The notes under the pieces were generated by a model. The model worked only from the letters and a program-made list of their open reading frames with translations. It had not been told where the DNA came from and ran no database searches. Shown piece by piece: positions 2,423 through 29,194 of a stretch of DNA of 33,743 bases; within the stretch, counting starts at the first letter, position 1, and each line of letters starts with the position of its first letter. This DNA comes from an uncultured Planctomycetia bacterium (GTDB lineage: Bacteria > Omnitrophota > Gorgyraeia > Taenaricolales > CAZCCH01). A program made the position numbers and the translations under genes. The stretch lies in the NCBI GenBank assembly GCA_964497315.1, contig CAZCCH010000015.1:1-33743 (forward strand), read 5' to 3'.

Positions 2423-3454
2423 ATGAGAAAAGCCACATTAATTTTTATAACATTGAACTTAATGCTTTTTTTAACTATTTCTTTATATGCAGCAGAGCCA
2501 AAAGAATATCAGCCCTATGGTCCGTTACCTGTGAAAAATCAGATGCCGCTCTATATCTTCTTTTTATCTTTTTCCCCAGATAAAGCAGAAGTTGTTAATG
2601 AAGGAAAATTTACCTATGATTTTGGCTATCAGGTATCAAATGGGGTATTAGACAAAGTCACAACCGGTACAGAAGACTATATAATTCAGATAGATACAGA
2701 AGTAAATAGATTCCATGTGGATTTAAGGTATGGCGTCCATGAAAATGCCGAAGTGGCGTTGGAGGTTCCATATATAAGATTTTCCAGAGGGTACTTGGAT
2801 GGGTTTATTGAAGGCTTTGAAGAGACGTTTAATTTCACAACCCCGGGTGCAAGAGAAAACTCCGACAGGAATAGCTATAAATATGAAGTACGAAAAGGGG
2901 GTGTCTACGCCATACGTTCGAATACACCCCATGGTACACTTGGGGATTCACTGCTGAGCTTTAAATACAAGTTGCTTGATGAATGCGATAATTATCCTTG
3001 GCCAACGTTTTCTGTTAAAGGAACACTAAAAATCCCCACTGGATCAAAAAGCAAATTGACAGGGAATGAGGAATGGGAAGGGGGTATTTCTTTATTGGCT
3101 GATAATTCTTTTTCAGATAGATGGTTTGGATATTTAAATTTCAACACAGCGTTTATACAAGAACCATCATTTTTTGAAGGTTGGGACATAGATAGCTATA
3201 TCATATCAGGGACCGTTGCCACTGAGTACTTTTTTACAAAAGGTTTGTCTACTATTTTGCAGCTATCTATAAACACAACCCCATATCCCTCAAGTGGAAC
3301 CGATCCCCTTGATAACGATGCATACGATGTGGCATGGGGATTTAACTATAAGTATACTGATTCAATAGAAGGACGTATATACGCAACTGAGAATCTAGAG
3401 ACAGATTCTTCTCCGGACTTTGGTCTTGGTGGTGGGTTTAAATTGAAGTGGTAA
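2423..3454 (+). CDS. Putative outer-membrane beta-barrel protein (secreted, unknown function)
   Basis: Sec signal peptide (MRKATLIFITLNLMLFLTISLYA-AEP), alternating amphipathic pattern, aromatic C-terminus (GGGFKLKW). Confidence 0.45.
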   Translation: MRKATLIFITLNLMLFLTISLYAAEPKEYQPYGPLPVKNQMPLYIFFLSFSPDKAEVVNEGKFTYDFGYQVSNGVLDKVTTGTEDYIIQIDTEVNRFHVDLRYGVHENAEVALEVPYIRFSRGYLDGFIEGFEETFNFTTPGARENSDRNSYKYEVRKGGVYAIRSNTPHGTLGDSLLSFKYKLLDECDNYPWPTFSVKGTLKIPTGSKSKLTGNEEWEGGISLLADNSFSDRWFGYLNFNTAFIQEPSFFEGWDIDSYIISGTVATEYFFTKGLSTILQLSINTTPYPSSGTDPLDNDAYDVAWGFNYKYTDSIEGRIYATENLETDSSPDFGLGGGFKLKW

Positions 3455-19033: not shown

Positions 19034-22000
19034 ATGAAACTATCAAACTCTAATATCCACAAAATTATATCAATAGCACTCCTTGTGACGTTTATGATGT
19101 CACTGATAGGGCCGGAGCTTGCCTTAGCTTCTTCTGAAACCCTTAGACCCCATGTTACATCAAGAAAAAAACCTCTTCTAAAAGAGATGATTGCAAGGTT
19201 TACTGAGTTGCAACGTCCTTCAGTAGCATCTAGTGCAGAAGACTTTAGAAAAGATGAAGTGCGCATAGTTAGAGAAATGACTGAAGCTGGACAGCTTTAT
19301 TTTCGCCATGAACCAGAAAAACCAAGTGCAATATACTATATACCATTTTTGCGATATAGAGCAAGGCTTACACGTTGTAGGGGTGTAGCTGATTATACCA
19401 GTGCTGTGTTGAATGAGAAAGATAGAAGGTTTTCTACATTTAAGAGTGAGCGCGATGGTTTTGAGCGTTGGTTTAGAACTTCCCAGGAAGGTTTTCCATC
19501 GGCAGCATTGTACGACATTGATGTTCATCCTCAAGACTTAAATGATGCCATTGCAGCACTCATAGAGCAGAAGACCAAAGAAAAGGACAATACCATTACT
19601 GTCAGGGCCTTCGGTTCTGGTTTACCGGCCTTACTTTTACCTGGAGATCCAGCTACACTTCTAGCAGGAGATGTTGAAATAGAAACTATTTTAAAGTTTA
19701 TATTATCAGGTCTAAGGCATACCAGGAATAAAGCAAAATGGACTGTGGTAGTTTATGTATATGATAAAAAGACAGCTTATTTAGGGCAACTGGAAAAGGT
19801 TCTTTTGGAAAAATTAGAAAACTCACCAATGCCATTTAATATTGTATTAAATCTTAGATATGGTGATATAGCAGATAGAGAGCAATACCCATATATGTTT
19901 GAAGAACAAAGTGACATTAATGTTTGCCGTAATATCACTCAAAGTGGTGAGAGTTTTTCTAAAGGAGATAGTATTTTTCATGGGCAATTAGTTAATAGCC
20001 TGTCACCTCATGGGTTTATTATACATGGTGCGCGTAGAAGGGGAGATAGGATTATATTAGCTTCTGATAGAGATGCTCTTAAGAGGTTAAGTGGCGATTT
20101 TCTGGATAGTAATTCTTCAGAAGATGAAGCTACTAGTAGGTTTTCAGAAATAGGTGCAATAGGTCACTTGGAAGAGGAAAGAAAAACAGAAGATCTTATT
20201 GCTGCATTGACTGCCTTTGATATTCCTTTTATACCCACAGAAAGCAATTGTGAATTTACAAGAATTTCCGCAGGTCATTCAAACCTTACGTATAATATTA
20301 AGCATAATGGCAAAAATAGGCATATTCTTCAACAAATGAGCACAATTTATGATGCAAATGCCCTTAATGCTAATCTGAACTTATTAGAACAGGCTCAAGA
20401 TGCATGGCTTAAGGAAGGCGCAGAAGATGAATACTGGCAGCCCGTTCATTATGTTAATGTCAAGGGCGCTTCTGATAAGCTATATTGTGATACAGCAGGC
20501 AGAATTTGGCGTTTAATGGATTATATTCCAGGAGAGGTTTTTGGAAAATTTAGTGATGTTCCTCAGAGTGATCGTAGAGAGATTGCCCAATCTCTTGGTA
20601 GGGCAATTGTTGTTTTTCGAAGAATGCTAGAATCAGTTCCTTTAGAAAGCTGGGAAAAGGATATGTCAGGTTTTCATGATCCACAATACTTTTATGCTTA
20701 TCTTCATTCTATTTGGCTGGGTCAGGAGGTGCCATTGAATTTTACTGATGGATCATCACATATGGTAGTTAGAGATCCTAGCGTAACAAGTGAATATTCA
20801 GAAAGAATAAATCTCTTAAAGAGAAAGATTGAAGATAGGAGACATATCTTAACTAGCTTAGATGAACTTGGCCAGGTTGTTTCACATGGAGATTTAAAGA
20901 TTGATAACCTATTCTTCCGAAAACACAAAGGCCGCTGGAAGTGCATATCTATTGCTGATTTAGATACGATACAACCTAGAAACGTCCTTACTGATCTTGG
21001 TGATGCACTGCGTTCTGCCGGCAACCCAGCTGGGTCAGAACCGAGAGCAATAGATGATGTAACAATAGATGTTGATGTGGTCACAAATATAATAAATGGA
21101 TACCTAGAAGCCACAGCAGGGTTTTATGATCACACAGAGGCAGAGCGCTTGAGACCACATACTATTGAGGCATTTAAACTTCTTCTGTATGGGCAGTCTA
21201 TGTGGTATTTAGCAGATGCACTTACTAATAGCGCATACTTTAATATAGGTGCAGAGAGAGCGCTATATAAGGCAGAGGTGCAGATGAGGGCATTGGAGCA
21301 GTTGGAAGAGTTAAGTCTAATTAAAGATGGCCCATTTGCTGATTTTGTCAAACCTGATGCCAGTAGGTTTGGGGAAAGGACTGCCGAAGAACGAATTGCT
21401 GCGCTGCGGGAAGATTTGGTGTATTATGAAGCAGCCGCGACAGCGTCTTCAGCACCTGATCAGGATTTTCCAGATGATATTTGTGATGTAGGTACAGGCG
21501 AAGCCCACCTGATGAATGAAGTCCACATTGCAGCTGATTCTGATGAGCGCCCTGAAAGAATAATTAGCGCATACACCGCTGGTCCTTGCCGGGCATATGT
21601 TATTAAAGGTAGAGTAAATGATGAGACAAGATTGTTTCTACGACATAGAGCTGCGGTAGAGGGCATACTTGATGATTTAAGAGAAGATATAGCCGCTTTA
21701 GAGAGAGCTGGCATGCAAGATAGAGAGGTTGTTTTTAAGCTTGATTTAAAGACGCAAGCCGGCCTGGAGGTCGTGAGGCTTGGATGGGTTTCTCCAGAAG
21801 AACTGAGGGAAAAAATTAAGGAAATATGCGGGCCTCGAATCTATACAGAAGAAGGCATTTTCCCACATGAAATTACTGATGTAATTGCAACCCAGGAAGG
21901 AGTAGTTATTTATTGCCCATATAATTCTAATGCCTCCAAGATTATCTTATGGCCAGAAAGCAAGGAAGGTGTATTCATGGATGCTGTATTGCCCAATGCA

Positions 22001-25000
22001 GAAGTCGTAGAGGATGAGGCATTTTCTGCTCAAAGCAGGTTTGGGGAAATGGCTGTTGATGCACTCAAGGGGAACATAAAGAGAGCGGTGTCTGTATTTA
22101 GGGATACGGCTATTGTAAAAAGTCCACAGTTAATAGAGGAAGACAAAAACAGAGTTTGGGTTATTAACAATATCTTTGAAGATAGATTCCTTCTAGATAG
22201 CGTAGTTTTAAAAGATCCAGACCCTAAACATGAAGAATATTTTTATGCTTCAAGAGAAGGGCTTGATATGTATGAGGCCCATTTTGAGAGTGACTATCCT
22301 CGCGTTGAAATAGCCCAAACAGTGATAATCGATAATCCGAAGGAAAATGATCTAGTTGGTACAAAAAGGGCATCACAGTGCCTTCCACTACTATTTGCTA
22401 ATATTCCTGATAACAAGCCCAACATGATAGGTTCTTCTCATATATTCACTTCGACAGACCCGACATTTTCATCCTTGGGTGATAAACTTCTTGACGCTGG
22501 ATATGAAAACCTAATTGTTGTAATTCCTCGTCCGAAAAAGCTTGGACGAACCGTAGCTCCATTCGCATTAAGAACATCTCAGTATGAGGAGGTGATAGCT
22601 AATATGCGAGCTAAAGGAATTACAGTATACGAGGTACCTTATCAAGACGTTTCAATAAGTGCTGCCGCAACAGCAGATGGTTTTGCGATATTCATAGAAA
22701 AATTCGTTGACCCCACAACAAAAAGGACAAAAGACATTGAAGAATTTGTTCTTCTTGAACCTATAAAAACATGGCAAGAATTCTCAAGTAGGTTTGGGGA
22801 GGTTGCTATTATTGAAGGTAATGCTGCACCGGAAGTTCTTCCGGCAACAGAGAATAGGATAGAGCTTGCGTTGAATATGCCTTCTGAAAGGGCTACGCAA
22901 ACAGGAACTGCCTGTATTAGACCCACGAAGGAAAGGGGATTTGCTGATGTATGGAGCCGCAGGGATTTTATGAAAGCCGGTGCTTTTGCTACGACTGTAG
23001 CAACTGTTTTTGGCAGTTTACCGAAGACCGGAGTTGCTGCTACGCCAGATGCTATTAAAGTCAAGGCAAAGGAGCTTTGTACACAATATTTAAAAGATGT
23101 TTGCGATGAGAAGATAACACTTGGACTAGATAATAGTTTAGGAACCTGGCGTGAAGTTCTCAAGGACAGGGAAGAATACGCCGACTTACTCAAGCCCGAT
23201 AATAATTATGCATTGCTTACTGCGTTTGTTTTTGACACGTTGTTTCCTGCGCTAGAGGAAGCTGCAAGCCGAACACGTGTCAGTGCCCATAACGCATCTA
23301 TAAATATAGAATTAGCCTTAATGAATCTCTTGGATAAAAAAGATGAAAAGGTCGAGGCATTTTTACGTCATACCTTAGCCAGGACCACTGACTCCTTGGT
23401 TAGAACAAGACGAATCCAGAATAAGGTAGAACGCGATAGACGAATTGGTATTGCACTGCAAAGACTGGAGAGCGCCTCTGCTTACATAGGGCCAGAGATT
23501 TCAGATAAGCTGGTTAGTATAGTCAAATTACACGATAGTTTAACGCAGCTTGGTCTGGAGCAAAAGGAAGAGATAGAAAGAGTATCCATGGAGATCAATA
23601 GTTTGATAATAGACCTAAATAAAATTCTAATTCCGCTTGGCTTATACTGCAGGGTTTCAATGAATGTAAGTCTGGGTGATGACAAAGAGCATATCTACAT
23701 CAAGTCGTTTAAAATAGAAAAAACCCGTTTATATAAAGCAACTGACGGCAAAGTTGTTAAGGTCTATATTGTAAAAGGGATAGATAACATAGCTATAACA
23801 AATGTCTTTGGTTTTCGCAGACTGGAAACAGACTATGCTGTAGTAATTTTAGATAATATAGAATCCAAAGCGAGAGACATAGAGGAAGTCCTAAAACATG
23901 GAAAATCTGATGCCCATAAGGATATAGAGAGCAGGCTGACTGCAATTGGGAAAGCAAGATTAGCAGACCTAAGGGTTTTACTTGTTGAGCTGGCAAAAAA
24001 GGAATTTAGTGGTTTGACCAGACAGCAAATAATGAATAAGATTCAAGTTTTAATCGAGACCCACGAGATAAGACATGTATTAGATAGGGGTAACTTTACA
24101 AGGGAAGAGCGCGATAAAAAAGAAGGTTCGGCTTTTATGGCAGAATTGATTCTGGCAGAATTGATTACAGGTACAGCTACATATTATAGTGTATTAAAAT
24201 GGGCTGAACATGTATTCAGAGGAGGAGAGCATGATTATGCCGCAAGGATGGTATTTGAAGGATTGATGAAAAAAGCAAAAGAGAAGGGATATGTAAATGC
24301 ATCCGTAAACCTGAAACATGTTAGCTTTAGAGAGTTGATAAAGACAGTAGAGACATTGCGCAGGCTAAGTAAGGGTGAAATTGCAGGTCTGGCAAGAGAG
24401 TCCTATAAAGAAATATTTGGTTTTGAATTTATAGATGCCTTGCCTGTCATTCAGCCTCCTGGTCGCTTTACCGAGCCAAAAAAGACAGCAACGTGTGAAA
24501 TAGCAATTAGAGGGAGAATGCATATTATACCCTCAGACTTGCTTGCCTATGAGCTATCAAACCTTTATAACGCAGTTAGGGGTAAGATTAATTTTACATT
24601 TAAGAAGGAGCTAGGAGACGATAGAGTTCTTGAAATGACTAATCCCGGGACAATAACTAATATTCTTAGCTTTGGACTGGGGCCTGGGGATATTCTAGAA
24701 GTTAGCGTGGAAGAGGACCTACCACGAGATGTGCAGGAAGAGGCATTGAATTACATTGAGGCTTTGTTTAATAGCTACCATATACTACAAGCAACTCAAT
24801 TGGCGCAGATGCATGGTGCTGAGCAGGCACGGATGGCTTTAGGTGGAACACCCTATGTTGATCTTGCCTCAGCAGAGCAGTATGGATTGGAGATAGTGCG
24901 TTCAGATCTATCTAGCAGTCTTTGGCCTGCATTAAGAAGACTAATAAGCATGTTGAAGCGTGATGTTGAGATTTCTCGTTTTACAGAAAGGGGAGATGAA

Positions 25001-28000
25001 ATACCCACTTCACCAGTCGATCCTGCAAGGTTTAGGGAAGATAGTAGGCTCATAGATGAGCGGGCAAGGGATATGCTGAAGGTGCTGTGTGAAAGCAGGC
25101 GCAGCCAGCCAACCAACACCAAAGCACGAAGGGCATTGGTGCGTTTAGAACACCTCGTGGATTCCAGATGGTCGTATGGTGAACAGTGGAGCGAAGTTAT
25201 CGATACATTGCGCGAAGCCGGACTCATCACCTCAGATACGGCAGGGTGGCTCGGCAGTTTGGATGATGAAGTTGTGCGCAGAACCATGTTCTATGTGACT
25301 GTGCGTTATCTTGACATAATGGAGCATGAAGTTTTATTTCACGGAACCTCACTGCATAACATAGACAGTATCAAGAAACATGGTCTGCACCCTGAGCATG
25401 TACCCCCGGGCAAAGAAGAACTTCAAAGGGTATTTGGCATAGTAGGCAAGGCGCTCGGAGAAGATCGCGCAATGGAGATTACAGAAGGTCAATTAAGTTT
25501 TGAATATGATCTAAGCCTTGCTAATTTTTACTTTGCTATCCTAGGCCCTGAGATGTTGCGAAGAGCGATAGGGGATTTACAAGAAATAAAGAAGCTAGGT
25601 TTTCCTGAAATTGATGAAGCAGATAGAAAATTTATAGAATATTTTCTTGAGCACTGGAATGATGGGTATCTTTCTTCAAACCAGCCATGCCTTCTGGCCG
25701 TACCGTTTAAGACAATCGTACAGTTTATGGATTTAGAGCAAGACGCTTACCAAAGGGATCGGACTAGGTTTCTGAAAAGGCCGCACGAATTTTTTAATGA
25801 TGTTATATTGCTTTACCTGTTTCCTTGGGAAACCTGGGTGGGGGAGGGTACATTGTTACCATTCCGCCTTCCAGCGCTTGATAAAATTGAAACAGCAATG
25901 CACGAACAAATGGCCGTTACCTTCCATGACGTGCATACATATTCCAGACCTAACTATGATCTGGGTGATATTTATGTTGTTACTGGTAAAAGAGATGCCC
26001 TCAATCTAGTACCGCTAAAACAAGTAGAAATAGATGAGCTTGAGAGAACCGCTGTTGTCCTCAGAGAAGTAAATCAAGAATGTCAAGAAAAACAAGGAGA
26101 AGTTTTCAATCGTAGCTTTTCTTCCCAGGAAGCACTTGATTTTTGCGCCGAGCTTCACAGCATTGCCCGGGAAGCCATTGCCAAGTCAAATTATGAGAGA
26201 ACCGATGGGTTATCAGGTGCTCGCTTTTCTGAGCAAGTTGAGTTTGTGGAGGATAAACTGGTCAGGGAACCAATAGAGGATGAAAATCTAACCTTGGACC
26301 AAGTGGAACAAATTGAAAGAGACAGACAGCAGATTGAAGCAGAATTGACTCGGCACTACGGGGATGCCGAGGCGTTTTTTGGAGAAGGACCACGTGATGG
26401 GATAAGAATTATTGCAACCACTGATGAAGAAGGCGAATTGATAGCAACTAGCCCCATTTATTATATAGCCCAAGGGGTAGCAATAAATGAGACCAGGCAA
26501 GAGGTATTGCTGAATTATCTTAATACGACTAGAGCGGGGATAGCAGAAGAAGGTTCGCGATATACGGTTTTTCATGAGATGGGTCACTGGGCTAATGAAA
26601 GTAGAGGTATTTCTAGTATAGTGCGGGAATTGATAGGTCCACAGATGGAGGAGATAGCGGCTTCGCATATTGAGAGGCATCCGGATGAATTGGGATTTTA
26701 CCTTGACTTGTATAATTCAAAGCTTAGAGAAGGTGAGATTCCTGTGGATAGGCTGCAAGAGTTACTGAAAGGCTGTTTAGTCGTCAAAGGCCTTACGCTT
26801 TTCGAGGATTGCTTGGTTGACAGGCAGTTATTAGAGTTAGCTCGCGCAGGAGATCTCGAAGGACTTGACAGAGAATTAATTGGTACAAGGAAAATACTTT
26901 TAGGCGATAAGCTAAAACAGCCAGATCTTTGTTGTCTCGCCATACTTAGATACAGGCTGCTTGAGGAAGTATATTCTCCAGATGATAGGACCAAGGTAGA
27001 TATTTTCCCGGATGACTTCAATCCAGAAAACTTTGGAATAAACGCAGAAATGATGAAGCAGATAGATGATGATGCGCGAGCGATGGCTGTGGCAATCAGG
27101 GGTGCGGAGCGCATGATAGCTAAATACGCGCCAGGAAAAATTGCGCCTCCAGGAGATTTGAGGGATTTAAAAGGCAGGCTGAAGTCATCTGTTGGAGATT
27201 TTATGCGACCATTGAAGAAATATCTTACCATTCCTGCGCTAATTTCTTATTTCAAGCTTAATCATACCCGAGTAGATCCCACGCGTTTCACCGAGGGTAC
27301 GGGTTCACTTAGTGCGGAGGGAAATTTGCCCGGCGATCAAACACTAGGTACTAGTGATTATTCCCCTGCCCGGTTTGTGGAAGGGGATGCCATTGCGCAA
27401 TGGCCTATTTCTATTGACGAGGCATTATTAAGAAGTGGTGAGTCTGCACGAGCTATTGCTGTAGAACCTGACTATGTTCCACCTTATGGAGTTTTAGCTC
27501 CTGGAGCTATTAATATTTCTGATTATCTCGCACTTGGCATGCTTGCTGCTTCAGGGATATCAAGTGAGCCGCAAGGGCAGGATGGGAAATTGAGCCGCAG
27601 GACGTTTCTTAAAGCTGCAGCCGCAGGAGCAGGCGTGGCAATTGGCAGCGCAGTAGTTCACAAGGTTCTAAAAAGCGATGATATAACACCGCGCATTTTA
27701 GATGATGCAGCCGATGAAAGATTAAGAAATGCTGGTAAGGCGATAAGTGCTAAATTCATGCATGTCTATGAAGAATACAAGGACAAAAATCCCGCCGAAA
27801 CAAAGCTGGTACGTGCACTTTTTAGAAAAATAAATGACCACAAGACAGAAAAGGAGATCATGCACCATCCTGAGCTTAAACACAAAAAAGATAACGTAGA
27901 CGTACTAATGGGTATAGGCGAACCTGCCGATGATAATGGTGAATCCCCTATCTATCTTTCATATAGCATACTGGGCCAACCCGATGAGATATTATGGGCA

Positions 28001-29113
28001 AAAATGGTCCACGAAGGATGGCATGCATATAATGAAATCCTCAAGAAGGCCAGTGGTGCAGCGGAGGCTATACGGCATGCACAAGATGAGATGCTTGCTA
28101 ATATAACCGAATGGGTTGAAAATCCCCAAAATCGCGATTCCATTAAAAGATATTTTAGCATTTGGGTAAATGAAGAGGAAATTGCCAATAGCTTGGAAAG
28201 AGCAGTTTTTGTTAGAGAAATAGGCGGTTCAGACAATGAGGCTATCGAAAGATTTGTGCAAAAAGCTATACAGCAAAATCCCAGGGCTCAGGCAGATACG
28301 GGCTCAGGCAGCAAAGAGAGAAAAGAGGCCTATGCGAGACATCTGAGAAGGTATGTAAGAGATCGAATACTGAGATATTATCGAATTCCCTCGTTACATG
28401 GTAGATTGCGATATATACTTAGTAGCTATTATTCACATGTAAAACCTGCTGTGTACATCGGGTTATTTCTAACAGAATTTTATGAAGGACGAGCTGATCA
28501 TCGAACTAGGACAACGAGCCCAGGCAGAAAGTTCTTCATAGGGCCAGATAGAATCGAACTAAATATAAGATCTCATGGAGCTAGTGGGCAGCAAAGGCTT
28601 ATTCTTACGCCTAAAGAGAATTTTTTAGAATGGGCATCGAACTGGGCAAATTCTGAGGAATATAAAAGATTGTTTGTGAAACCAGAAGGCCTTACGAAAA
28701 TGCGCGGTTCCCGCTTTTCCGAAGCCTCCCAAGCCATATTTGGCAAAATTGAGCAACCCACAGGCATAATAATGAAAGCAGATTTTGCTACTAAAATCTT
28801 TCCAGTTTTGCCAGAGTTAGCAGTCCACTTTGGCCAAAAGGTAACAATTGCTGTAGTGGGCCCTTCACAGCTAAAGGAGAGAATAACCAAAGTAAATGCA
28901 GTCTTGCCACATGATGTATCTATTATACTATGCGATACCATTGATGAAGCAGCCAAGGAGTTGTCTGAGAGAGGTATAGGCCTTATCAGATTACTCACCA
29001 GAAAAACAATAAAAGACCTTCCTTTGGTTCGTGAAACCCTCCTTATTACAGAGAAGACCCTACAGCTAATAGATGAGTTGAGATCCCGCAAAGAAATAGC
29101 TGGTGGGGCATAA
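19034..29113 (+). CDS. Giant secreted multidomain protein (3359 aa)
   Basis: Uninterrupted 10,080-nt ORF. Sec signal peptide (cleavage about ALA-SS). Kinase-like catalytic loop HGDLKIDN (residue 618) plus nucleotide loop SAGHSNLTYNI and IADLD. Internal SRRDFMKAGAFATTVATVFG (residue 1308) and SRRTFLKAAAAGAGVAIGSAVV (residue 2854). HExxH at residues 1677 (HEIRH), 2514 (HEMGH) and 2993 (HEGWH). EVLFHGTS...SIKKHGLHPEHV ART-clan motif at residue 2103. Confidence 0.8.
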   Translation: MKLSNSNIHKIISIALLVTFMMSLIGPELALASSETLRPHVTSRKKPLLKEMIARFTELQRPSVASSAEDFRKDEVRIVREMTEAGQLYFRHEPEKPSAIYYIPFLRYRARLTRCRGVADYTSAVLNEKDRRFSTFKSERDGFERWFRTSQEGFPSAALYDIDVHPQDLNDAIAALIEQKTKEKDNTITVRAFGSGLPALLLPGDPATLLAGDVEIETILKFILSGLRHTRNKAKWTVVVYVYDKKTAYLGQLEKVLLEKLENSPMPFNIVLNLRYGDIADREQYPYMFEEQSDINVCRNITQSGESFSKGDSIFHGQLVNSLSPHGFIIHGARRRGDRIILASDRDALKRLSGDFLDSNSSEDEATSRFSEIGAIGHLEEERKTEDLIAALTAFDIPFIPTESNCEFTRISAGHSNLTYNIKHNGKNRHILQQMSTIYDANALNANLNLLEQAQDAWLKEGAEDEYWQPVHYVNVKGASDKLYCDTAGRIWRLMDYIPGEVFGKFSDVPQSDRREIAQSLGRAIVVFRRMLESVPLESWEKDMSGFHDPQYFYAYLHSIWLGQEVPLNFTDGSSHMVVRDPSVTSEYSERINLLKRKIEDRRHILTSLDELGQVVSHGDLKIDNLFFRKHKGRWKCISIADLDTIQPRNVLTDLGDALRSAGNPAGSEPRAIDDVTIDVDVVTNIINGYLEATAGFYDHTEAERLRPHTIEAFKLLLYGQSMWYLADALTNSAYFNIGAERALYKAEVQMRALEQLEELSLIKDGPFADFVKPDASRFGERTAEERIAALREDLVYYEAAATASSAPDQDFPDDICDVGTGEAHLMNEVHIAADSDERPERIISAYTAGPCRAYVIKGRVNDETRLFLRHRAAVEGILDDLREDIAALERAGMQDREVVFKLDLKTQAGLEVVRLGWVSPEELREKIKEICGPRIYTEEGIFPHEITDVIATQEGVVIYCPYNSNASKIILWPESKEGVFMDAVLPNAEVVEDEAFSAQSRFGEMAVDALKGNIKRAVSVFRDTAIVKSPQLIEEDKNRVWVINNIFEDRFLLDSVVLKDPDPKHEEYFYASREGLDMYEAHFESDYPRVEIAQTVIIDNPKENDLVGTKRASQCLPLLFANIPDNKPNMIGSSHIFTSTDPTFSSLGDKLLDAGYENLIVVIPRPKKLGRTVAPFALRTSQYEEVIANMRAKGITVYEVPYQDVSISAAATADGFAIFIEKFVDPTTKRTKDIEEFVLLEPIKTWQEFSSRFGEVAIIEGNAAPEVLPATENRIELALNMPSERATQTGTACIRPTKERGFADVWSRRDFMKAGAFATTVATVFGSLPKTGVAATPDAIKVKAKELCTQYLKDVCDEKITLGLDNSLGTWREVLKDREEYADLLKPDNNYALLTAFVFDTLFPALEEAASRTRVSAHNASINIELALMNLLDKKDEKVEAFLRHTLARTTDSLVRTRRIQNKVERDRRIGIALQRLESASAYIGPEISDKLVSIVKLHDSLTQLGLEQKEEIERVSMEINSLIIDLNKILIPLGLYCRVSMNVSLGDDKEHIYIKSFKIEKTRLYKATDGKVVKVYIVKGIDNIAITNVFGFRRLETDYAVVILDNIESKARDIEEVLKHGKSDAHKDIESRLTAIGKARLADLRVLLVELAKKEFSGLTRQQIMNKIQVLIETHEIRHVLDRGNFTREERDKKEGSAFMAELILAELITGTATYYSVLKWAEHVFRGGEHDYAARMVFEGLMKKAKEKGYVNASVNLKHVSFRELIKTVETLRRLSKGEIAGLARESYKEIFGFEFIDALPVIQPPGRFTEPKKTATCEIAIRGRMHIIPSDLLAYELSNLYNAVRGKINFTFKKELGDDRVLEMTNPGTITNILSFGLGPGDILEVSVEEDLPRDVQEEALNYIEALFNSYHILQATQLAQMHGAEQARMALGGTPYVDLASAEQYGLEIVRSDLSSSLWPALRRLISMLKRDVEISRFTERGDEIPTSPVDPARFREDSRLIDERARDMLKVLCESRRSQPTNTKARRALVRLEHLVDSRWSYGEQWSEVIDTLREAGLITSDTAGWLGSLDDEVVRRTMFYVTVRYLDIMEHEVLFHGTSLHNIDSIKKHGLHPEHVPPGKEELQRVFGIVGKALGEDRAMEITEGQLSFEYDLSLANFYFAILGPEMLRRAIGDLQEIKKLGFPEIDEADRKFIEYFLEHWNDGYLSSNQPCLLAVPFKTIVQFMDLEQDAYQRDRTRFLKRPHEFFNDVILLYLFPWETWVGEGTLLPFRLPALDKIETAMHEQMAVTFHDVHTYSRPNYDLGDIYVVTGKRDALNLVPLKQVEIDELERTAVVLREVNQECQEKQGEVFNRSFSSQEALDFCAELHSIAREAIAKSNYERTDGLSGARFSEQVEFVEDKLVREPIEDENLTLDQVEQIERDRQQIEAELTRHYGDAEAFFGEGPRDGIRIIATTDEEGELIATSPIYYIAQGVAINETRQEVLLNYLNTTRAGIAEEGSRYTVFHEMGHWANESRGISSIVRELIGPQMEEIAASHIERHPDELGFYLDLYNSKLREGEIPVDRLQELLKGCLVVKGLTLFEDCLVDRQLLELARAGDLEGLDRELIGTRKILLGDKLKQPDLCCLAILRYRLLEEVYSPDDRTKVDIFPDDFNPENFGINAEMMKQIDDDARAMAVAIRGAERMIAKYAPGKIAPPGDLRDLKGRLKSSVGDFMRPLKKYLTIPALISYFKLNHTRVDPTRFTEGTGSLSAEGNLPGDQTLGTSDYSPARFVEGDAIAQWPISIDEALLRSGESARAIAVEPDYVPPYGVLAPGAINISDYLALGMLAASGISSEPQGQDGKLSRRTFLKAAAAGAGVAIGSAVVHKVLKSDDITPRILDDAADERLRNAGKAISAKFMHVYEEYKDKNPAETKLVRALFRKINDHKTEKEIMHHPELKHKKDNVDVLMGIGEPADDNGESPIYLSYSILGQPDEILWAKMVHEGWHAYNEILKKASGAAEAIRHAQDEMLANITEWVENPQNRDSIKRYFSIWVNEEEIANSLERAVFVREIGGSDNEAIERFVQKAIQQNPRAQADTGSGSKERKEAYARHLRRYVRDRILRYYRIPSLHGRLRYILSSYYSHVKPAVYIGLFLTEFYEGRADHRTRTTSPGRKFFIGPDRIELNIRSHGASGQQRLILTPKENFLEWASNWANSEEYKRLFVKPEGLTKMRGSRFSEASQAIFGKIEQPTGIIMKADFATKIFPVLPELAVHFGQKVTIAVVGPSQLKERITKVNAVLPHDVSIILCDTIDEAAKELSERGIGLIRLLTRKTIKDLPLVRETLLITEKTLQLIDELRSRKEIAGGA

Positions 29114-29165: not shown

Positions 29166-29194
29166 TTGACAGAAGGGAGTTTCTGGTATATACT
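29166..29194 (+). promoter_or_regulatory. Near-consensus sigma70 promoter for the DUF134 gene
   Basis: TTGACA (29166-29171), 17-nt spacer, TATACT (29189-29194), with upstream TGG. Confidence 0.55.

Follow-up and report, generated by a model that had tools for sequence, protein, structure and literature searches.

Internal twin-arginine segments of a 3,359-codon gene

The window analysed here is the whole of contig CAZCCH010000015.1, 33,743 nt of DNA from an uncultured Omnitrophota bacterium. It carries an uninterrupted 3,359-codon open reading frame (ORF) at positions 19034-29113 of the forward strand (10.08 kb), which encodes a multi-cassette protein referred to below as the giant protein. 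Deep inside this protein lie two segments that resemble the signal peptides of the pathway for twin-arginine translocation (Tat), beginning at residues 1308 and 2854. The same protein contains twelve copies of a short motif, RFxE, which we call junctions (Table 1). The segment at residue 1308 is the main subject of this analysis.

Translation of window positions 22955-23053 yields SRRDFMKAGAFATTVATVFGSLPKTGVAATPDA, residues 1308-1340 of the giant protein. The first-pass annotation had described a near-consensus Tat n-region and hydrophobic region (h-region) here, in the middle of the protein. That description was borne out, and its start coordinate was right; its end, at 23050, fell 3 nt short of the true end. 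SRRDFMK agrees with the consensus S/T-R-R-x-F-L-K at six of seven positions, and SRRTFLK, at residue 2854, agrees at all seven. We defined a strict Tat pattern as [ST]RR.F[LMIVF][KRAGST] followed by 13 residues without D, E, R or K. Within the six frames of the window it occurred at just two sites, residues 1308 and 2854. When the protein was shuffled 20,000 times, the pattern appeared at least once in three shuffles and at least twice in none. TIGR01409 matched two stretches of the giant protein at 25.1 bits (cut-off 16.7). Since these are the sole two sites in six frames, no shuffle of 20,000 produced a pair and TIGR01409 found two stretches, the Tat-type segments are not due to chance. Pfam TAT_signal (PF10518) recognised the second segment at 23.9 bits, above its cut-off of 22.7.

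Only the N-terminal leader has a more hydrophobic 15-mer than the h-regions of the two twin-arginine (RR) segments, which rank second and third in the protein. That of the first segment, AGAFATTVATVFGSL, ranks third and has a positive insertion energy. On a Hessa-type scale the two h-regions score +2.3 and +2.5, values that disfavour membrane insertion of the Sec type; such positive insertion energies are typical of Tat h-regions. Both are uncharged and rich in Ala, Gly and Thr, and both c-regions contain basic residues (K1331 in the first, H/K at 2877-2881 in the second). The c-region of segment 1, PK-TGVAA-TPDA, has VAA or PDA as candidate small-x-small sites, and a clearer small-x-A followed by Q or A is present in homologs. 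Taken by their composition, the RR segments appear Tat-like rather than Sec-type or transmembrane (TM).

An exhaustive HMMER search of 1.84 billion representatives with residues 1253-2400 as query gave 20 matches, consisting of the query's own fragment and 19 relatives. An RR segment lies directly N-terminal of the homologous domain in P0004, P0005 (two copies), P0006, P0007, P0012, P0013, P0017 and P0018. P0004 and P0006 come from Omnitrophota metagenome-assembled genomes (MAGs). The segments take the form [S/T/K/D]-R-R-x-F/L-[LFIVM] plus an uncharged stretch, and most end in small-x-Ala with Gln or Ala next. The RR segment is internal in every one of these homologs, at residues 86-1401 of proteins of up to 3,653 aa (the P0004 sequence is truncated at a contig end). 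Domains in the resulting alignment (A1) are 22-37% identical to that of the window, and 44% in the close relative P0002. Because RR, F and hydrophobicity were kept while the rest of the signal diverged and the domains fell to 22-37% identity, we conclude that these features are under selection. Replacement of RR in relatives had been named at first pass as a check on the segment; when the check was run, the relatives were found to keep both RR and the S/T-RR-x-F consensus.

The signal at residue 1308 is thus real, statistically and evolutionarily, and it always travels with the domain behind it. In the distant relative P0009, a complete stand-alone ORF of 533 aa, a Sec-like N-terminal signal is followed by the same domain, which implies that the domain unit is an autonomous exported protein. 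This stand-alone ORF counts in favour of the first-pass interpretation. Two scans of genome contigs, two of metagenome contigs and one of viral contigs yielded no confirmed relative. A word-indexed search with residues 2750-3359 as query returned one relative only, and with residues 1100-1900 it retrieved no sequence, the giant protein included.

Table 1. Features of the giant protein and their positions in the 33,743-nt window.
Feature	Residues	Position	Strand	Remarks
N-terminal hydrophobic leader	8-32	19055-19129	+	only segment of TM or Sec grade; first RFxE ~25 residues later
Junction 1, A-RFTE	55	19196-19207	+
Junction 2, S-RFSE	369	20138-20149	+
APH-fold kinase cassette core, NahK-like	412-762	20267-21319	+	between junctions 2 and 3
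Junction 3, S-RFGE	778	21365-21376	+
Junction 4, S-RFGE	1002	22037-22048	+
Junction 5, S-RFGE	1253	22790-22801	+	start of the cassette with the residue 1308 signal
51-residue spacer, junction 5 to RR motif		22802-22954	+	in-frame TTG 22871 and ATG 22877 inside
Tat-type signal, SRRDFMK + h-region + c-region PKTGVAATPDA	1308-1340	22955-23053	+
Helical and beta-sheet domain (~470 residues), predicted DPP-III-like zincin fold	1338-1808	23045-24457	+	no Pfam match
HEIRH	1677-1681	24062-24076	+	nearly invariant HExRH (alignment A1)
Downstream E..AF.AE motif		24122-24148	+	alignment A1
Junction 6, G-RFTE	1811	24464-24475	+	end of the cassette with the residue 1308 signal; low pLDDT; aligned with T-RFAE of P0002
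Junction 7, S-RFTE	1982	24977-24988	+
Junction 8, A-RFRE	1999	25028-25039	+	13 residues after junction 7, 'empty' cassette
Weak ADP-ribosyltransferase (ART) / RNA 2'-phosphotransferase-like match	2088-2121	25295-25396	+	contains FHGTS
Junction 9, A-RFSE	2397	26222-26233	+
HEMGH	2514-2518	26573-26587	+	third HExxH; cassette without export signal; motif only
Junction 10, T-RFTE	2751	27284-27295	+
Junction 11, A-RFVE	2780	27371-27382	+	25 residues after junction 10; L017 homology starts exactly here
Sister Tat-type signal, SRRTFLKAAAAGAGVAIGSAVVHKVLKS	2854-2881	27593-27676	+
HEGWH, second Tat-bearing cassette	2993-2997	28010-28024	+	invariant in relative
Junction 12, S-RFSE	3227	28712-28723	+	L017 homology ends exactly here

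RFxE junctions, cassette exchange and the HExRH domain

The motif [S/A/T/G]-R-F-x-E occurs 12 times in the giant protein against an expectation of 0.22, with a maximum of three in 5,000 shuffles; for R-F-x-E the 12 copies compare with 0.95 expected. No copy of [SATG]RF.E was present in the 6,426 residues of the window's other ORFs. The residues before RFxE are rich in Pro, Ser, Asp, Gly and Thr. The RFxE codons differ between copies, which argues that selection acts on the peptide. We rejected the idea that the junction is a DNA or RNA element, or the relic of a stop codon, ribosome-binding site and start codon, since AG[TC]AGGTTTGGGGA is found in three copies and the other nine differ in their R, x and E codons. 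Prepilin-type (G|F-x-x-x-E) and PEXEL-type (R-x-L-x-E) sites were also discarded, because their spacing is different and RFxE has no hydrophobic stretch after it.

Judged from its sequence, the giant ORF is a series of at least ten putatively autonomous cassettes joined by flexible, RFxE-bearing linkers. A whole enzyme fits between two junctions in the case of the NahK-like kinase, whose residues 412-762 (Pfam APH, E 2e-10; N-acetylhexosamine 1-kinase in the PDB, E 5e-9) fall within 369-778. Homologs of the ART-like and HEMGH regions were found in P0008 and P0011, and the matches of the ART-like region (PARP, E 0.04; Tpt1 models, E 0.007-0.016) are all far below the cut-offs. Only two cassettes have a Tat signal; the others are of cytoplasmic type without an export signal, such as the kinase and the weakly ART-like region. 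The two RR signals sit 55 and 74 residues from the preceding junction, inside their cassettes and not at the edges. The first-pass division into three blocks (about 1-1300, 1300-2850 and 2850-3359) split by the signals is therefore superseded, the real boundaries being the 12 RFxE motifs. In two places (24977-25039 and 27284-27382) a pair of junctions is separated by only 13 or 25 residues rich in Gly, Ser, Thr, Pro and Asp, and these tandem pairs resemble 'empty' cassettes that have lost their modules.

L017/L018 (P0021 plus the next ORF), a relative from the same water column, has a leader of the same kind and four junctions (HFAE, SSRFGE, SSRFAE and GSRFAE). Its leader is 52% identical to residues 8-32 of the window protein. 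Apart from the leader, a single cassette is common to the two, residues 2777-3230 of the giant protein, with 61% identity from end to end and two 1-residue indels. The alignment starts at S-x-x-R-F-x-E and ends at G-S-R-F-x-E, and the sequences on both sides, including a P-loop module in L017, are unrelated to the window. L017 keeps the RR motif as NRRSFLK (TIGR01409, 17.7 bits). Between the window and L017, the domain of this cassette shows a dN/dS of ~0.15-0.24 and the spacer and signal one of ~0.5, at a dS of ~0.6.

The same is seen in P0002 (44% identity in A1), where T-R-F-A-E at the end of the domain aligns with G-R-F-T-E of the window and is followed by an unrelated 165-residue module. 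Homology between this module and the window modules after residue 1814 or 3230 was rejected, as BLAST found no match. Homology therefore breaks exactly at the RFxE motif at three independent junctions, and RFxE motifs mark the boundaries of cassette exchange between close relatives. The first-pass annotation had proposed an ancestral fusion of three exported proteins, or a polyprotein. Fusion or polyprotein is still the best available reading, and the part that did not stand is a one-off fusion of three proteins, given that cassettes swap at RFxE.

L017 also contains an in-frame TAG in the middle of its HEGWH cassette (positions 2293-2295, and the same in L018, in two independent assemblies), at the equivalent of K3005 in the window (~28046-28048). 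The sequence 3' of this codon is still conserved (dN/dS ~0.24, 64% identity). A recent nonsense mutation, readthrough and restart at TTG 2320 are all possible explanations.

The domain behind the first signal was modelled with AlphaFold2 from alignment A1 (pLDDT 84, pTM 0.80). Residues 1-39 of the model, which comprise the RR signal, and residues 513-520 (PPGRFTEP) are unstructured, and the predicted fold starts directly after VAATPDA; in the model, the RR signal thus lies outside the folded domain. In A1, positions H382, E383, R385, H386, E402, A405 and F406 are nearly invariant and E414 is invariant. The second motif reads E.RAF.AE in homologs and EGSAFMAE in the window. From the model, HExRH and E-x-RAF-x-AE, we read the domain as a probable divergent zincin peptidase. 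A Pfam scan gave no family match, including to PF03571. The A1 profile retrieved only designed helical bundles among PDB sequences, and Foldseek found no match in the PDB.

The predicted fold is similar to that of dipeptidyl peptidase III (DPP III; MEROPS M49), at 8-11% identity. M49 enzymes have the motifs HExxGH/HExxxH and EExR(K)AE(D), whereas the window has HEIRH, which is HExxH in spacing, and a second motif that merely resembles that of M49. DPP III enzymes are cytosolic, while the window domain carries an export signal. With no profile match and a different motif spacing, the domain is not a demonstrable member of M49, and it would define a new HExRH peptidase-like family without a Pfam match.

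Processing, export and rival explanations

The best explanation of the residue 1308 segment, as far as its sequence goes, is that it acts as a functional Tat-type export signal and serves as the targeting element of a self-contained cassette, residues 1253-1814. For the protein as a whole we tentatively favour, at a little short of an even chance, a polyprotein that is processed at its RFxE linkers, after which the two HExxH cassettes would be exported in folded form by Tat. Autonomous domains and recurrent linker sites, the hallmarks of a polyprotein, are found here in one ORF. The cassette of residues 1253-1814 would then consist of a junction, the 51-residue spacer, the RR signal, the ~470-residue DPP-III-like HExxH domain and the next junction. 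Cleavage of the precursor may take place at or beside the RFxE linkers, on the cytoplasmic side, with the chain possibly held at the membrane by the N-terminal leader meanwhile. The two RR cassettes (residues 1308 and 2854) would behave from then on as ordinary Tat precursors, acquiring their fold and their metal in the cytoplasm and leaving it through TatAC. They could be released by signal peptidase at an A-x-A-like site or remain anchored by an uncleaved signal. The kinase and ART-like cassettes, which have no signal and would need ATP or NAD, may take another route, without export.

Several points weigh against this proposal. Cleavage, the protease and the scissile bond are all putative; three HExxH modules in the ORF and an M48 peptidase 11 kb upstream are at hand, but no link joins any of them to RFxE. 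A search of the giant ORF for a cognate protease domain (CPD, 3C-like etc.) recognised none. Just three lineages, closely related and all from the Cariaco Basin, showed RFxE (the window, L017 and L015), and distant Omnitrophota proteins have internal RR signals without RFxE, so they must use another solution. After a cut at RFxE the RR motif would still be 55 or 74 residues from the new N-terminus, beyond usual Tat n-regions, and the Sec-like N-terminal leader is left without a role. There were no tat genes in the 33.7-kb contig, the only sequence in which tatA and tatC could be sought. Segment 1 scored 13.6 bits (E 0.066) in Pfam TAT_signal, below the cut-off of 22.7. As for the passengers, the link of the first to DPP III is structural only and comes from a predicted model, with neither a Pfam match nor a PDB sequence-profile match, and the putative zinc-peptidase label of the second has HEGWH as its sole basis (AlphaFold2 pLDDT 35, two-row alignment).

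The strongest rival, though an unlikely one, is an uncleaved membrane protein in which the RR segments are internal Tat-dependent signal-anchors (N-in/C-out), so that the HExxH domains would lie outside and those of kinase type inside. Insertion of a final helix by an internal Tat signal is an established mechanism (PMC7317946). Actinobacterial Rieske proteins have a final helix with an internal Tat signal and are inserted jointly by Sec and Tat (Keller 2012, Tooke 2017 via PMC7317946), and there too an internal RR segment hands a folded, cofactor-binding C-terminal domain to Tat. Two further observations suit this arrangement. Cytoplasmic-type domains lie directly 5' of RR segments in homologs, namely a histidine-kinase ATPase in P0017 (1228-1378, before RR 1391) and PGI/FBPase in P0004, and most long proteins of Omnitrophota are reportedly associated with membranes.

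However, the Rieske type needs an even number of Sec-inserted helices before the RR motif, and the giant protein has one leader (residues 8-32) and no return helices; a single N-in/C-out leader puts the first RR motif on the wrong side. In the Rieske type the RR helix is the last and its passenger is C-terminal, whereas here ~2,000 residues, six further junctions and a second RR segment follow. A hydrophobicity scan of the giant protein found no TM-grade segment between the two RR signals, the only one in the protein being the leader. The chain therefore has no way back to the inside between residues 1308 and 2854, and an uncleaved chain cannot show both RR motifs to the cytoplasm. Behind the first RR motif, Tat would need to move about 1,500 residues across, the weakly ART-like region among them. 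The RFxE motif and the conserved small-x-A/Q sites after the h-regions would also be left without explanation.

Translation of the Tat cassettes from internal starts, whether in addition to the long product or in its place, is improbable; it would yield ordinary N-terminal Tat precursors, and the long ORF would merely lack stops between former genes. The first-pass annotation had noted a purine-rich stretch before the segment, which is indeed present (AAGGAAAGGGGA at 22928-22939), and had found no in-frame start close by. The latter is correct for the 25 codons before RR and fails just beyond them, where TTG 22871 and ATG 22877 lie 28 and 26 codons upstream. Neither has a well-spaced Shine-Dalgarno (SD) sequence, which in the case of ATG 22877 speaks against its use, though many genes here lack one. 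A further in-frame ATG is the M of RRDFM. At the second signal, TTG 27590 encodes the L of L-SRRTFLK, has AGGA 7 nt upstream and would give M-SRRTFLK, and in three homologs a Met stands two residues ahead of RR (MDRR in P0004, MSRR in P0005 and MKRR in P0007). Against this, L017 has TTA where the window has TTG, and neither P0006 nor the second signal of P0004 has an in-frame ATG, GTG or TTG at a distance of up to 20 codons from RR. With no start codon near RR in these three cases, internal initiation cannot be general. The frame has also stayed open over 10 kb, and a peptide motif is conserved in its linkers; the junctions are therefore translated. Separate transcripts from an internal promoter or terminator were rejected, as promoter-like sites are not enriched (22 against 26 expected) and none lies just 5' of either RR motif.

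We consider it equally improbable that the RR segments are non-functional leftovers of once separate Tat precursors in a fused protein that is exported, or not, as one piece. The stand-alone domain with its own N-terminal signal does exist (P0009), and the M-x-RR of three homologs resembles former N-termini. Yet S/T-RR-x-F, the uncharged h-region and small-x-A have been kept in at least nine internal copies whose domains are 22-37% identical and whose surrounding signal sequence has diverged. The signal common to the window and L017 keeps RR-x-FLK at a dS of ~0.6, at which neutral relics would have decayed.

We likewise give little credence to the polyprotein being delivered by a presumably epibiotic Omnitrophota cell into a host or prey bacterium and cut there. 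On this view the RR signals would take over the victim's Tat system so that the peptidase cassettes reach its periplasm, and the kinase and ART-like cassettes would work in its cytoplasm. The kinases, the weak ART-like match, the three HExxH modules and the cassette swapping between strains do recall polymorphic or multi-effector toxins, as do the higher GC content (41-45% against 35-39%) and the absence of the gene from the syntenic site in relatives, and predatory or parasitic lifestyles have been proposed for Omnitrophota (PMC10066038; 10.1101/2023.11.21.568195). The idea is entirely inferential, with no delivery system, immunity gene or toxin-family match (PADLOC none; Pfam weak only), and the same unit of RR segment and domain adjoins housekeeping-type domains in other Omnitrophota proteins.

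Known systems and genomic context

The RR segments share with Tat signal peptides (TIGR01409/PF10518) the consensus, a weakly hydrophobic h-region rich in Ala, Gly and Thr, a basic residue in the c-region, candidate small-x-small sites and, directly behind, a passenger that resembles a metal enzyme. They differ in position. Tat signals are canonically N-terminal, whereas here 1,307 residues of the 3,359-residue protein precede the first and 2,853 the second copy; an N-terminal position would be possible only after processing. To our knowledge, Tat signals are defined as N-terminal, and the accepted internal ones are confined to the last helix of a few proteins co-inserted by Sec and Tat.

Flavivirus- and pestivirus-type polyproteins, MARTX and polymorphic toxins resemble the giant ORF in combining autonomous, swappable modules, a boundary motif and embedded export signals in one ORF. 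Flavivirus and pestivirus polyproteins have internal signal sequences, and polymorphic toxins have VENN or DPxGL pre-toxin junction motifs. The differences are that the gene here is a cellular bacterial one, that its junction is a 12-fold [S/A]-R-F-x-E and that its signals are of Tat type, not Sec type. We know of no described junction system with [S/A]-R-F-x-E, its 12-fold repetition or embedded Tat-type signals.

Giant and long proteins of the same phylum, Omnitrophota, also have metabolic, regulatory and hydrolytic domains side by side in one chain that contains hydrophobic segments, and their cleavage into several products has been the subject of speculation (10.1101/2023.11.21.568195; 10.64898/2026.06.07.730766; PMC10066038). 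At 10.08 kb and 3,359 aa, the window ORF is far below the giant size classes (ORFs of >20 kb; >=10 kaa). Information about the points of cleavage is missing, according to the 2023 preprint (10.1101/2023.11.21.568195), and the 2026 preprint discarded internal signal-peptide calls as chunking artefacts (10.64898/2026.06.07.730766). Neither Tat nor twin-arginine occurs in the full text of these three sources, and a full-text literature search found nothing that links Omnitrophota with Tat signals or polyproteins.

What stands out is a full Tat consensus conserved deep inside proteins of several thousand residues across divergent Omnitrophota, always before one peptidase-like domain. Conserved internal Tat signals would be a surprise for a specialist in secretion or in Omnitrophota, and the RFxE rule would make the polyprotein question testable. 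If the junctions are processing sites, they would provide the first concrete, testable cleavage rule for Omnitrophota long and giant proteins. It would also follow that topology pipelines that delete internal signal-peptide calls discard real biology. A wider version of the proposal, which we regard as possible but doubtful, is that some Omnitrophota long ORFs are true cellular polyproteins, with independently evolving cassettes that can be swapped between strains, a lineage-specific linker ([S/A]-R-F-x-E; possibly KPWLV), post-translational cutting and embedded Tat signals that sort products across the membrane of the producer or of a victim. In that case the cleavage points of Omnitrophota giant proteins would be at hand, and the viral logic of a polyprotein with internal signals would reach into bacteria and the Tat pathway.

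KPWLV comes from P0004/L016 (Omnitrophota MAG GCA_034376285.1), where this exact 5-mer occurs three times, at residues 4, 58 and 2886. Two of the copies lie 28 and ~64 residues 5' of an RR signal, and P0004 also contains PGI-like and FBPase-like regions. KPWLV may be the lineage-specific counterpart of RFxE, although this is only a hint.

Independent assemblies of the same contig (JGI, ENA and Logan) agree on the gene with 100% identity, and we therefore rejected an assembly chimera. Its split into 940 and 1658 aa in ENA scaffolds (L009/L010) is not a natural boundary either, as it coincides with a 10-N scaffold gap at residue 1700 (gene nt ~5100). One assembly sample is from a marine oxygen-deficient water column (PMC12220078), and the sample-name prefixes point to the Cariaco Basin as its origin. 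Nearly all named best matches of the neighbouring Dus gene are Candidatus Omnitrophica/Omnitrophota, at up to 66% identity. The genes around the giant ORF are ordinary chromosomal genes of Gram-negative type. The giant ORF has a GC content of 41-45%, compared with 35-39% in its flanks. It is missing from the syntenic site, between a 132-aa gene and a DUF134 gene, in two relatives (L017 and L020), and is accessory for that reason. L017 has a shorter cassette gene at another place in this neighbourhood, and close to its empty site is a gene for a LAGLIDADG endonuclease.

An antisense ORF of 183 aa (22642-23193, reverse strand) overlaps the first Tat segment; it has no family match, is probably spurious and was rejected as a real gene. 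A SIR2 gene (10811-11575), a patatin-Omp85 fusion (PlpD-like; 12235-14562) and an HTH-Fic protein (15490-16407) are encoded 5' of the giant ORF. A strong terminator-like hairpin with a T-run is present at 18975-19005, 30 nt 5' of the ORF's ATG. At the other end, an 11/12 match to a sigma-70-like promoter at 29166-29194 lies just 3' of the stop codon (29111-29113) and 5' of the DUF134 gene.

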